A stretch of DNA of 64,000 nucleotides, taken from NCBI GenBank assembly GCA_041738235.1, contig JBGSQF010000013.1, forward strand, positions 257,899 through 321,898, read 5' to 3'. Both the position numbers and the translations under genes were made by a program. Numbering within the stretch: the first letter of the stretch is position 1; the number at the start of each line of letters is the position of its first letter. The notes under the pieces were generated by a model. The model made no database searches, was not told where the DNA came from, and saw only the letters and a list, made by a program, of their open reading frames with translations. This document shows, piece by piece, positions 514-13,739 of the stretch. This stretch comes from Minisyncoccia bacterium. Lineage in GTDB: Bacteria > Patescibacteriota > Minisyncoccia > Moranbacterales > GCA-2747515.

Positions 514-2025
514 CTACTCTTCGAGAACTCTTACCACCCCCGTATTAGCATCCACCTCCACCATCATACCATCCTTGAGAACCTTTGTAGCGATCTTGGT
601 ACCGATGATGCAGGGTTTTTTGAGCTCGCGAGAAACGATTGCTGCGTGACAGGTGACCCCACCTGTATTGGTAACGATCGCAGATGCCCTGTGGATAGCG
701 AGCATGAGCGTAGGATTGGTCGAGTAACTCACCAACACATCCCCCTCTTGCATCTTTACAACGTCGCGAGAACGATTAATGAGCTTCACCTTGCCTCGCG
801 CTATACCGGCGTACGCCACATCTCCCCTAAGCTCAGTTACTTTCTCCAATGATGTATCTTTTTCGACCACAAACATTTTCTCAATTCTTTTTCCCTGTTG
901 CCCCGTGATCAACTGTGTTTTTTTCCCTTTTAACGTATAGACCGTAAAAGCATACCGGCTATTTAAAACACTCTCATCGATCAAAGATCGGCCATCTATA
1001 AGAAGCTCCCCATACTCAGCAAGCGTTATATATCGCGCCTGCACTGATGTCCAATAAAACCGTCTTCCAATCTCGCGAAACCATGCTCCCATTACATAAC
1101 TCAGTTGGTATTGCTGATACTCTTTCCGACATTCCTTGGCGTAGGCCAGATCTCGAAGTATTTGTATCTCCTTATACACACCTCGCGGCAAGATCTTCTG
1201 TATTTTTTTATCCAATTCGCGTAATGATCCTTCCTCACGAATATATCGCTTTTCTTGGACAGATGGATCCTTATGCATATACCGTCCTAAAACATCCACA
1301 TAATACTCTTTCCCTGCCCCGATATCCATATAGTATGTCTGTAGCCATCCGTACTGACGCACCAAAGCCATGATGGACCGTTTCATGCTCATCGAAAGAA
1401 GTTTATACTCTTTTTTGCGGACCGCACCAACAGATCGTAGATCTTTTTTTACTTTTACGGCTAGTTTCAATATGGCACGCTGCTCCTTATACGTCAGTGT
1501 TTTCCCCAAGGGCGTGATCGCTTTTGCATACACCTCTTCAGGATTTTTAAATGACCTCAGGTACGGCATAACATGCGCCTTGACGCGTGTAGAATATTTA
1601 TCTGATCCCATTTCTAAGAACTGCCCGAACATTCCCCACGTCCAACACTCAGAGAACAGATCGTACGCCTTCTTGTAGATACCAAACAAAACCTTGTTCG
1701 AACAGCGAGAAAGGTCCTTCTTCTGTAGGGACGCGTTAAACCTCTCAATATCTTTGATGCGTGCAAATGTATTTTTGAGTATCTTCTCAATGAACTTCGG
1801 ATCTTTCTCAAGCATTTGCTGAACATAAATACCGCCTTGACTGAACTTTTTATCATTCACCCCCCATTTTATATGATCCTTCTTCCATACAAAGACAGCA
1901 TCCATGCTCAACGCTCCATCGCTCAATCTATCAAGACGCCTACTCAAAACATCATCATGCAAAATGTACCATGGATAAAATGGCACATTATAATCCTCCA
2001 ATATCGTGGTGTATTTCTGAGACAT
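514..2025 (-). CDS. Paralog 1 of the array: divergent N-terminal domain + C-terminal PEP-utilizing-enzyme phosphohistidine (swivel) domain
   Basis: C-terminus ...[65 protein letters not shown] matches the PEP-utilizers mobile-domain motif GG.TSHAAI.ARE(L)G.P..VG. N-terminal ~380 aa of an unrecognised family. Confidence 0.8.
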   Translation of the reverse strand: [503 protein letters not shown]

Positions 2026-2052
2026 AAACTACCCCCAAAAAAAAATTTATTC

Positions 2053-12207: not shown

Positions 12208-12236
12208 AAATCCTTTGTATTTAATAAGATTATCTA

Positions 12237-13739
12237 CTAAATGATCGTCACAACACCTTTGTTAGCATCTACCTCCACCAACATTCCATCCTTCAAAACC
12301 TTCGTTGCAACCTTCGTACCAATAATACAGGGCTTTTTCATCTCCCGACTCACGATAGCTGCATGACAAAGTATCCCTCCCTGATCCGTAACAAAAGCGG
12401 ATGCCTTCTCCATTGCCGGGATATAATTTGGATCGGTCATCGAGATAACCAGAACATCCCCTTGTTTCATCTTACGCATATCTTTTGTACTCTTCAAAAC
12501 ACGGCATGTCCCCCTTATAATTCCCGGAAAAGCGACGGACCCTCGAAAAGAATTATCCAACCGCTCCTCTTGATCATTTAAAAGGATACTCCGGGAAATG
12601 AGGTGAGCCACATCCCCCGTGAACACATACCGATCGTTACCCGCCATGATACCCACAAAAGCCTTTTTTCGTTCAGCTATGATATCTTTGTACGGTAACT
12701 TACCCAGAAGAGCCTGATGCACCTCGTTTGCATCCAAGTACTTTATATCAAGTACTTTTATCTTCAATAAAGTTGTGATCTTTACAATGATCGGCCAAAT
12801 ATTAAATAGTGCCACATGAACCACATCATTTCGAAAAGACCTCAAAAATCCAAATAGTTGAACGGTCATTGCTAAGTTATACAAATGAGGGATAGACTCA
12901 ATATCCTTCATGATTCGCCCCCTTAAAAGACGCAAACTTCTCTCTTGTTTTCTATATGTCTTATACTCATGTTCGATATCGGTCCGAAGTAGTTTCTGCA
13001 ATTTACGCATAAAGACAACTTCACCATATGGCTTCTCTTCCATTAAAACCATCCCGATCCATCCATGCTTCTTTGTGTGTTGAGCGATCTTTCTCTTTAC
13101 TAACTCAGAATCCATGCTCATCTGATGCGCCTTGATATAGCATGCCATTCGCATCAGACTACTTTTTTCCTCAAGTACAAATATTTTTCTGTCTGGCAAA
13201 GTAATTGCGCTGATAAAATCAAAATACTGATCCTGATCAAATCCTTTTTGATCACAATATATCTTGAACTTTTTCTCAAAGACTTCTGTAAGAAACAGAT
13301 CCACCAAATGCAAACTAAACATATACGGCATCATCTCTTTACACGATTGGATGACCTGAGAGTACATGCCTACCAACTCACTCTTTGACAGGCAAGGGAG
13401 GGGGGTTTTCCCCATCAGTTTCGAAAGATCCAATAGATCATCCCCCATTTTCAAACAGTTTTCGGCATAATGAAAGAGATACGTATCGTCTTTCCGATAT
13501 TCGCTTCGGATCTGCTGCGCAACCGCATCCCACTCCCTTTGTAGATCAAGGTATGCACCATCCTGTGTCCAAATACCAAATGTTTTACAAAAAGGAAAGT
13601 TTAATTTTTGCTGATATTTAGTTGATTCTCCCTCTCCATAGATCTCCAAATAAAGAGGGCTGGCATGCCACATTCCCCGCAGTCGCCACTTTTCATTCTT
13701 TATCCTGTCAAGAAGTATATTGAGTCTTTTTTTATCCAT
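12237..13739 (-). CDS. Paralog 8: divergent N-terminal domain + PEP-utilizing His domain; first gene of the array, 32 nt downstream of ribH
   Basis: ...[69 protein letters not shown]. Confidence 0.8.
   Translation of the reverse strand: [500 protein letters not shown]

Follow-up and report, generated by a model that had tools for sequence, protein, structure and literature searches.

A stretch of 64,000 nucleotides from the genome of a Minisyncoccia bacterium (contig JBGSQF010000013.1, forward-strand positions 257,899 to 321,898; here called the window) contains an array of nine minus-strand genes, which encode one stand-alone ATP-grasp protein and eight paralogous proteins (p1 to p8) that combine an N-terminal domain with the C-terminal swivel domain carrying the phosphorylatable histidine (His domain) of phosphoenolpyruvate (PEP)-utilizing enzymes. 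Rifampin phosphotransferase (RPH; PDB 5FBS/5FBT/5FBU and 5HV1), like the RPH-like single-chain enzymes (PRK06241 family; PigC/RedH/HapC), joins ATP-grasp, acceptor and His domain in one chain; the locus is an RPH severed after its first domain and with the second half present in several copies. We consider it reasonably probable that the single ATP-grasp protein charges all of these acceptor/His proteins (also called modules) in trans and that each of them phosphorylates a different small molecule. Trans-charging, small-molecule substrates and distinct specificities are inferred from the domain identities, the RPH-like fold, the catalytic residues and the recurrence of the layout in other genomes.

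The ATP-grasp component is encoded by the open reading frame (ORF) 11266-12207, whose product contains PF01326 (E 4e-99) and no other domain. By tblastn, no second ATP-grasp was found in the 64-kb window, in agreement with an earlier note on this DNA, which had named this ORF as the single, separate ATP-grasp gene. The protein aligns end to end with residues 6-316 of RPH-Lm, keeps K22, R117 and T136 (motifs GGKG, VRSSATAED and LDT) and ends at 'QSRPITTL', the border of the RPH ATP-grasp domain (residues 1-314). The locus is split exactly at the border of ATP-grasp and acceptor domain, at an identity to RPH of 12-16%. An ORF scan reproduced the coordinates and the minus strand previously given for the ATP-grasp ORF and the eight paralogs. 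The features of the array are as follows, with lengths in amino acids (aa), Pfam E-values and hhalign probabilities of the N-terminal domain (N-domain) against the p4 family; the apex motif is explained below.

514-2025, minus strand: paralog 1 (p1), long class, 503 aa; PF00391 E 5e-23; N-domain hhalign 95.8%; catalytic His460 (codon 646-648), apex AKECRKE (1120-1140)
2053-3615, minus strand: paralog 2 (p2), long class, 520 aa, most divergent tail; PF00391 E 1e-22; hhalign 98.9%; His477 (codon 2185-2187), apex LKGYRKE (2653-2673)
3843-4340, plus strand: GC-rich ORF within the array, 165 aa
4473-5936, minus strand: paralog 3 (p3), long class, most divergent, 487 aa; PF00391 E 1e-24; His446 (codon 4599-4601), apex MRDLRKD (5076-5096)
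6025-7512, minus strand: paralog 4 (p4), long class, 495 aa, modelled representative; PF00391 E 1e-23; His451 (codon 6160-6162), apex LRTQRAD (6622-6642)
7509-8558, minus strand: paralog 5 (p5), short class, ~349 codons with an in-frame TAG at 8262-8264; PF00391 E 3e-25; His codon 7659-7661, without apex motif
8568-9890, minus strand: paralog 6 (p6), long class, 440 aa; PF00391 E 2e-25; hhalign 99.0%; His398 (codon 8697-8699), apex YRTHRTD (9141-9161)
9900-11234, minus strand: paralog 7 (p7), long class, 444 aa; PF00391 E 8e-26; hhalign 99.5%; His401 (codon 10032-10034), apex LRNERAD (10458-10478)
11266-12207, minus strand: ATP-grasp gene, 313 aa, stand-alone nucleotide-binding component; PF01326 E 4e-99
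12237-13739, minus strand: paralog 8 (p8), long class, 500 aa, acceptor resembling the RPH rifampin-binding domain plus swivel His domain; PF00391 E 2e-24; hhalign 99.6%; His459 (codon 12363-12365), apex LRSFRND (12825-12845)
13772-14245, minus strand: ribH (lumazine synthase), PF00885 E 3e-53, 33 nt upstream of p8

In the order from p1 to p8, the intergenic distances amount to 27, 857, 88, -4, 372, 9, 31 and 29 nt. The range of 9-90 nt formerly given for the gaps does not hold for those of 857, 372 and -4 nt, while it is correct for the remaining ones. The p2-p3 gap of 857 nt contains the ORF on the opposite strand, the start of p4 and the stop of p5 overlap by 4 nt, and the distance between p5 and p6 shrinks from 372 to 9 nt when p5 is read through its stop.

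All eight paralogs match PF00391 at the C-terminus (E 1e-22 to 8e-26; 79.6-89.8 bits compared to a cut-off of 23.1) and carry the catalytic loop GG[VIM][TL]CHAAI of the GGxTCHAAI type, which bears out the initial assignment of a PEP-utilizers domain with its motif to every copy. The identity of 85-95% over ~100 aa that had been attributed to this domain has to be narrowed, since the whole domain is only 43-67% identical and near-invariance is restricted to the last ~44 aa. This tail, from GGxTCHAAI to the end, shows a mean identity of 80% (range 57-95%; 75-95% without p2), compared to 20-48% for the first ~56 aa of the domain. Its identity to the archaeal PEP synthase 8a8e amounts to 59-70%, compared to only 32-36% to RPH. 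By sequence, the ATP-grasp domain (226 bits) and the His domains are both closest to PEP synthase. Two residues ahead of the catalytic His (position -2), p1, p2, p3, p6 and p7 carry Thr, while p4, p5 and p8 carry Leu. This position corresponds to the regulatory Thr of PEP synthase and pyruvate phosphate dikinase (PPDK), the target of the PSRP/PDRP kinases; HpeH-type enzymes carry Met there.

The N-domains of p1, p2, p4, p6, p7 and p8 are connected by pairwise BLAST. A p4-family profile, built from 59 homologs after removal of the His domain, was compared with the other paralogs by hhalign and resulted in probabilities of 99.6% for p8, 99.5% for p7, 99.0% for p6, 98.9% for p2 and 95.8% for p1, while a small family profile of p3 matched the p4-family N-domain profile with 95.4% over 313 columns. 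Altogether, the seven long-class N-domains, including p3, form one family (hhalign 95-99.6%, 275-355 columns). The proposal of one diversified family for all N-domains is therefore valid for these seven, but not for p5, which represents a shorter, separate class. In six paralogs, the weak aromatic-GW motif pointed out in the earlier note precedes another conserved motif, [R/K]xx[R/K]x[D/E], by 71-77 residues, and this constant spacing marks it as a homologous site.

An AlphaFold2 model of p4 (predicted local distance difference test, pLDDT, 93.6; predicted template modelling score, pTM, 0.92) was used for a Foldseek search, in which the six best matches were all Listeria RPH (E 7e-14 to 2e-12). 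For the N-domain family, the rifampin-binding domain of RPH was the only structural match. Based on this model, the acceptor component is structurally homologous to the rifampin-binding and swivel domains of RPH. The p4-family profile aligned to RPH residues 562-866, and R292 and R295 of p4, both invariant in the 59 homologs, were placed on RPH R666 and K670. The second motif comprises these equivalents of Arg666 and Lys670; this apex motif [R/K]xx[R/K]x[D/E] is found in all seven long paralogs. In RPH, R666, E667 and K670 hold the transferred phosphate, K670 being part of the phosphate hydrogen-bond network, and the exchange R666A or E667A kills the second phosphotransfer (Stogios et al., PMC4844700). 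The NCBIfam model of RPH also aligned, at its positions 625-864, to residues 191-439 of p6. The RPH-like order of acceptor and His domain, which had been proposed from the window alone, is thus supported by the family profile and by the invariant Arg pair.

Contrary to the long class, p5 comprises an N-terminal region of ~236 aa without GW and apex motifs, dissimilar to the long-class core. This region is orthologous to a ~250-aa middle segment of proteins headed by an ATP-grasp domain in other genomes (E 2e-25 for locus L002; also L006; loci of other genomes are numbered with L), and p5 is, as far as its sequence indicates, the counterpart of the module fused to ATP-grasp there. Its frame is split by the TAG codon into ORFs of 98 aa and 228 aa, with an intact swivel domain after the stop. 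In this genome, TAG functions as a regular stop codon. A sequencing error is an unlikely cause, since identical DNA is found in two other assemblies (read sets SRR28170473 and SRR28170474), which probably stem from the same population as the window. No ninth copy was detected by tblastn; the decayed paralog that had been counted in addition to the eight is p5 itself. It may be a fresh pseudogene, a two-piece protein or a product of read-through.

To judge whether the missing ATP-grasp domain of the paralogs could reflect a fragmented assembly, as the earlier note had considered, the domain content was examined for the best 120 relatives of p4 and the best 120 of the ATP-grasp protein. The latter, with 60-83% identity and almost all of ~312-330 aa, contain PF01326 only; the former contain PF00391 only, without PF01326. 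Since the split is usual among the relatives of both components and comes from many independent assemblies, an artefact can be rejected. The relatives of p4 comprise more than 4000 clusters, with Patescibacteria/Paceibacterota and Woesearchaeota among the source names, and the ATP-grasp protein is 58-60% identical to copies in metagenome-assembled genomes (MAGs) of Nanoarchaeota and Woesearchaeota (L007, L017). Such a high identity across bacteria of the candidate phyla radiation (CPR) and DPANN archaea implies gene transfer between the domains of life. Further relatives of the ATP-grasp protein, at 44-62% identity, were found in MAGs titled 'uncultured Gammaproteobacteria' or 'Clostridium sp.' (L005, L009, L013, L014, L024, L028), one of them a chromosome of 1.23 Mb. 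These titles are probably wrong.

The combination of one ATP-grasp with several modules was also observed elsewhere. A stand-alone ATP-grasp beside His-only genes is present in L007 (Nanoarchaeota), L015, L017 and L029 (Woesearchaeota), and L020. In L002, L004 and L006 the ATP-grasp is fused to one short module, with further His-only genes alongside, and in L003 and L034 it heads a chain of two modules. Among the loci with p4 orthologs, L049 comprises one fusion and five modules, L047 at least five modules, and L045 a module with a HAD phosphatase. Altogether, arrays with one ATP-grasp, stand-alone or fused, were found in CPR and DPANN genomes at L002, L006, L007, L015, L017, L029, L049, L086 and L100. 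A metagenome sample, for which His-only genes served as anchors, comprised 27 loci with a length of 12 kb or more; 23 of them contained at least two modules, 15 at least three and nine at least five, with a maximum of nine (L128). An ATP-grasp was present in 10 of the 27, never more than one per locus; L100 (ATP-grasp and seven modules) and L086 (ATP-grasp and five) show the same layout as the window. Adjacent modules are sometimes fused to chains of two or three acceptor/His units of up to ~1500 aa, with or without an N-terminal ATP-grasp (P0182 with 1506 aa, P0184 with 1500 aa, L003 3303-7508, L034 9995-13732). A fusion to UDP-GlcNAc 2-epimerase (PF02350), indicated by precomputed hits on P0060, P0080 and P0110, was rejected, as the hits lie below the cut-off and overlap the swivel domain; the long relatives behind them consist of two or three fused modules.

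The modules of one array appear, from comparison of their sequences, to belong almost always to different, anciently diverged subfamilies. A set of 257 N-domains from 106 loci fell into ~142 subfamilies, and only four of the domains have a neighbour of their own subfamily within the locus. The paralogs of the window show 27-42% identity to orthologs elsewhere, compared to ~20-28% to their siblings in the same genome. Examples are the orthologs of p2 in L021 (41%, E 2e-91), of p3 in L047 (E 8e-47) and of p6 in the Woesearchaeote L017 (31%, E 2e-50). Of all fetched loci, it is one from a Woesearchaeote that carries the nearest relative of the p6 N-domain.

The statement of the earlier note that no system with this architecture had been described does not hold for the split, since PpsAB, CreHI, AcvAB, PasAB and HpeHI are characterized two-component dikinases. 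Phenylphosphate synthase (proteins 1 and 2; PpsAB), CreHI, AcvAB and PasAB each consist of a ~40-kDa ATP-grasp and a ~70-kDa acceptor/His protein. Hosts are Thauera, Geobacter and Ferroglobus for PpsAB, Corynebacterium for CreHI, Sphingobium for AcvAB, Desulfatiglans for PasAB and Rhodococcus for HpeHI. In common with the window, these systems comprise an ATP-grasp protein of ~310-380 aa and a separate protein with N-terminal acceptor and C-terminal swivel His domain, and the RPH-like fold of the acceptor component is shared as well. They follow a ping-pong mechanism via phosphohistidine (His~P) and form only transient complexes; for HpeHI, a stable complex was not found (Dexter et al., PMC12167813). 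Separate ATP-grasp and acceptor/His proteins that meet in transient complexes, as in HpeHI, PpsAB, CreHI and AcvAB, set a precedent for trans-charging.

Compared to the window, however, the two-component dikinases are 1:1 pairs with an acceptor of ~510 aa, whereas here one ATP-grasp lies among 7-8 modules with acceptors of ~330-410 aa. Their substrates in the catabolism of aromatic compounds are phenolics or aniline, and carboxylase or oxidase genes lie nearby. No such context exists in the window, where the array is flanked by ribosomal protein genes, ribH and the gene for L32, or in the related arrays, which contain phosphatases, M20 peptidases and OTCase genes. PpsA, CreH and HpeH are ~45% identical to each other, and the window proteins lie outside this sequence subfamily: the NCBIfam model PRK08296 matches only the C-terminal ~110 aa of the paralogs, with 51-95 bits compared to cut-offs of 578-730. 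The His loop of the window reads T/L-C-H as in PEP synthase, while the loop of the HpeH type contains Met. Loci of the PpsAB/HpeHI kind were present among those compared (L033, L036, L037, L044). For arrays of one ATP-grasp and many modules in CPR or DPANN genomes, no description was found in the open-access literature, an absence which is not a proof. Accordingly, the one-to-many layout, widespread in CPR and DPANN, appears to be undescribed so far, while the split itself is already known.

Archaeal PEP synthase (8A8E) shares with the window the His tail and the GGxT[C/S]HAAI loop including the regulatory Thr position. Contrary to the window, its His domain is central and it possesses a PEP/pyruvate-binding TIM barrel, none of which was found at the window locus, where the His domain is C-terminal and the acceptor helical and of the RPH type. 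The PEP synthase equivalogs (TIGR01418/PRK06464) gave 94-124 bits for the paralogs and 325-335 bits for the ATP-grasp protein, compared to cut-offs of 598-740. In the case of the RPH equivalog (NF041857/NF000283), the paralogs reached 47-76 bits and the ATP-grasp protein 277 bits, with a cut-off of 999. The equivalents of R666 and K670 and of K22, R117 and T136 are retained, while Glu667 is not conserved.

In RPH, PpsAB and HpeHI, the catalytic His attacks the beta-phosphate of ATP, the resulting pyrophosphoryl-His loses the gamma-phosphate, and after the swivel domain has returned a hydroxyl or amino group is phosphorylated. By analogy, the 313-aa ATP-grasp protein of the window would bind MgATP, and the swivel His domain of a carrier would dock on it transiently. 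Attack of the carrier His on the beta-phosphate would yield His~P together with AMP and Pi. The His domain would then swing back to its own N-terminal RPH-type acceptor domain, where the apex motif would position the phosphoryl group for transfer to the bound small molecule. The seven long-class proteins with their anciently diverged acceptors would presumably phosphorylate seven different compounds and would all depend on the one ATP-grasp.

Several observations weigh against this interpretation. The position of RPH Glu667 is occupied by T, N, S, G, E or D in the paralogs and is thus not conserved, and the comparison of the N-domains with those of the PpsA/HpeH type resulted in an hhalign probability of only 0.4%. 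No ATP-grasp lies within 10 kb in 17 of the 27 array loci of the metagenome sample, and likewise in L045 and L047, while the stand-alone ATP-grasps of L005, L013 and L031 have no module within 10 kb. This indicates that clustering is frequent, but not obligatory. HpeH alone moves phosphate from 4-phosphoacetophenone to acetovanillone without its ATP-grasp partner (PMC12167813), a precedent by which His-only modules could act independently. Furthermore, the conserved tail of the modules, equally similar between genomes as described below, does not single out the ATP-grasp of the own genome as partner.

The alternative that follows from these points is that the His-only proteins work without the ATP-grasp, either as ATP-independent transphosphorylases (X-P + Y -> X + Y-P) or charged by PEP synthase/PPDK, PEP, acetyl phosphate or carbamoyl phosphate, while the ATP-grasp serves the short-class module only. 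In addition to the activity of HpeH alone and the 17 arrays without a nearby ATP-grasp, this would agree with relatives that fuse the ATP-grasp to a short-class and not to a long-class module, with genes connected to phospho-donors (phosphate acetyltransferase, PTA, and OTCase) interleaved in some arrays, and with canonical PpsA genes in some CPR and DPANN genomes (L018, L019, L023). However, the His tail (59-70% identity to 8a8e) and the ATP-grasp (226 bits) are both PEP-synthase-like, which suggests a matched pair. Moreover, p5 carries a stop, yet the ATP-grasp gene is intact and lies between long modules with gaps of 29-31 nt. The characterized two-component relatives all need the ATP-grasp subunit for net phosphorylation, and the 120 closest relatives of the ATP-grasp protein are stand-alone, i.e. 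built for work in trans. Altogether, an ATP-grasp-independent action of the modules is rather unlikely.

The genes interleaved in related arrays give a further indication of the function. Of 91 such genes, 23 encode phosphohydrolases of four unrelated superfamilies (His_Phos_1 8, HAD 7, LMWPc 5, HD 3). They lie in or beside arrays at L047 2957-3889 and 3972-4535, L049 12940-13581, L006 5997-6875, L029 3900-4676, 6312-6989 and 9339-9932, and L045 11458-12069, and include an 'RHG' phosphatase family of ~290-320 aa with 42-52% identity between distant loci. In the 64-kb window, no phosphohydrolase of the interleaved type was found. The presence of phosphohydrolases among the interleaved genes suggests a further processing of phosphorylated intermediates, as in the Acv pathway, which includes a HAD phosphatase. 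Alternatively, the phosphatases could reset His~P. Other recurrent genes are M20 peptidases (6 of 91), OTCace_N (5 of 91), PTA (twice) and TrmB regulators, and an OTCase-like carbamoyltransferase gene between two M20 peptidase genes forms a block which recurs within arrays, at L047 6229-9806, L048 486-4042 and in others. The products of the M20, OTCase-like and PTA genes act on or next to phospho-donor metabolites.

A second alternative concerns the substrates, with the array as a panel for the inactivation of antibiotics or xenobiotics, in effect a multi-drug split RPH protecting an episymbiont from compounds of its host or community. RPH is indeed the closest solved structure, with the acceptor site retained, known members of the family act on hydrophobic hydroxylated compounds (rifampin, phenolics), and the many subfamilies with their variable assortment per genome resemble a resistance toolbox. 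In contrast, the scores of 47-76 bits for the RPH equivalog are far from its cut-off of 999, the subfamilies are kept across distant genomes beside housekeeping genes (ribosomal operon, ribH) without a sign of mobile elements, and the interleaved phosphatases would reverse an inactivating phosphorylation. A resistance panel is also a sub-case of the trans-charging model, with the same mechanism and specific substrates, and no independent mechanism. We regard it as improbable.

Still less credence is given to the modules as ligand-sensing regulators or pseudo-enzymes, with an RPH-like domain for the binding of DNA, a protein or a signal and a His domain as the switch, similar to the RPH-like repressor PspR or the regulatory swivel domain of Bacillus pyruvate kinase. 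PspR of Haloferax mediterranei is RPH-like and has been reported to bind a promoter without rifampin kinase activity; in addition, no substrate can be assigned to the modules and some arrays contain regulators of the TrmB type. In PspR, an ATP-binding domain and a diverged middle domain are part of one polypeptide, for which DNA binding has been proposed, whereas the window proteins show conserved catalytic motifs. The example of PspR demonstrates that the RPH-like scaffold can be taken over for roles other than that of a kinase. The catalytic His, the GGxTCH loop and the apex residues are kept across paralogs and genomes, which would be costly in a non-catalytic protein. No DNA-binding domain was detected in the paralogs by Pfam search, and up to nine genes in genomes of ~1 Mb, with phosphatases alongside, fit better to metabolism. 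A regulatory role is therefore very improbable.

The proposal that gene conversion among tandem copies made the tails near-identical, in an array arisen by recent duplication, is already largely refuted, although short identical patches of DNA (42 nt common to p4 and p6; 'GGGGATCTGGT' in p5 and p7) and faint signatures of single genomes ('DGMM' in four window copies, 'DGDM' in all six copies of L002, 'LHDG' in L047) are in its favour. The DNA of the tails is only 60-87% identical between copies, identical residues are encoded by the same codon in only 28-72%, and the shared repeat unit of 235 nt, detected by a repeat finder in eight copies, shows 60-74% DNA identity. The low DNA identity and the different codons indicate that the tail is kept by purifying selection and not by recent gene conversion. 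Furthermore, the N-domains diverged anciently and have orthologs in other genomes, and the tails resemble each other across genomes to the same degree as inside one: the mean tail identity of 0.80 within the window compares to 0.74-0.79 to the closer arrays L002, L003, L047 and L049, and decreases to 0.61-0.73 only for more divergent arrays of other genomes. The same comparison bears on the suggestion of the earlier note that a common docking interface for the ATP-grasp holds the His domain constant, which finds no specific support, as the tail is equally conserved between genomes and PEP-synthase-like.

In the surroundings, the array is bounded by rpmF (L32, 45-341) and ribH, which comes after the ribosomal operon rplO, rpsE, rplR, rplF. 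A terminator-like hairpin at 14344-14368 stands between ribH and rplO, and ribH is probably the first gene of the transcription unit of the array; it is taken here as context and not as a proven component of the system. In L110, an unrelated array of eight modules, the modules are interspersed with genes for flavokinase, riboflavin synthase and lumazine synthase (7529-9386). A recurring link between the arrays and flavin metabolism is possible, with two loci, the window and L110, as examples. Neither tRNAs nor Rfam elements were found in the array region, and a flavin mononucleotide (FMN) riboswitch ahead of ribH was also not found. There was no sign of mobile elements around the array. The PADLOC defence models gave zero matches for ten proteins, and an anti-phage defence system was accordingly rejected.

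The ORF on the opposite strand at 3843-4340 differs from the array in its guanine-cytosine (GC) content of 0.60, compared to 0.41 in its flanks (41-43% in the array). It is preceded by a promoter-like site at 3741-3769, which among all sites of the region gave the best sigma-70-like match. Among 5.8 billion proteins it has a single homolog of 60% identity, which is likewise GC-enriched and is located next to a His_Phos_1 gene of the array type and to the terminal part of a swivel domain. The ORF appears to be a near-orphan gene travelling with such arrays. Its N-terminal 'YVITHG' recalls a degenerate RHG histidine-phosphatase motif, with no profile match, and an assignment as a divergent array-associated member of His_Phos_1 was dropped, as no similarity was detected.

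Regarding the physiological role, our guess is a trapping or activation of scavenged metabolites or xenobiotics, followed by the action of the interleaved phosphatases. A role in trapping or scavenging has been proposed for HpeHI (PMC12167813), and by analogy the idea would fit the scavenging lifestyle attributed to CPR and DPANN organisms. More generally, and only tentatively, CPR and DPANN organisms might possess a modular phosphorylation hub, so far unrecognized, in which one ATP-grasp 'charger' serves up to nine or more interchangeable modules, assorted differently in each genome, from well over 100 anciently diverged subfamilies and exchanged between the domains of life. Such a hub might play a major part in the capture, activation or detoxification of small molecules which these ultra-small symbionts are unable to produce, and partly replace conventional kinases missing from their genomes, with dedicated phosphatases downstream.

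CPR bacteria and DPANN archaea account for a large share of microbial diversity, with genomes of ~1 Mb in which many pathways are missing and most lineage-specific genes have no assigned function. In the window, ~13 kb are given to one enzyme system, and in related genomes up to nine genes. The public labels of its proteins, 'PEP-utilizing enzyme', 'pyruvate, water dikinase' and 'phenylphosphate synthase', may lead to false calls of gluconeogenesis or phenol degradation. In a metagenome paper on DPANN, such genes were labelled 'phenylphosphate synthase' and phenol degradation was inferred, although the carboxylase is absent (PMC8091004). Seen as acceptors of a split RPH-like dikinase, the modules provide hundreds of protein subfamilies with a concrete biochemical hypothesis that can be tested. 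Should one ATP-grasp indeed serve many carriers, a minimal genome would gain many kinase specificities in a compact way, and the system would be a natural scaffold for the engineered ATP-driven phosphorylation of chosen small molecules. In this case, the recently defined two-component dikinase subfamily would extend well beyond aromatic catabolism.

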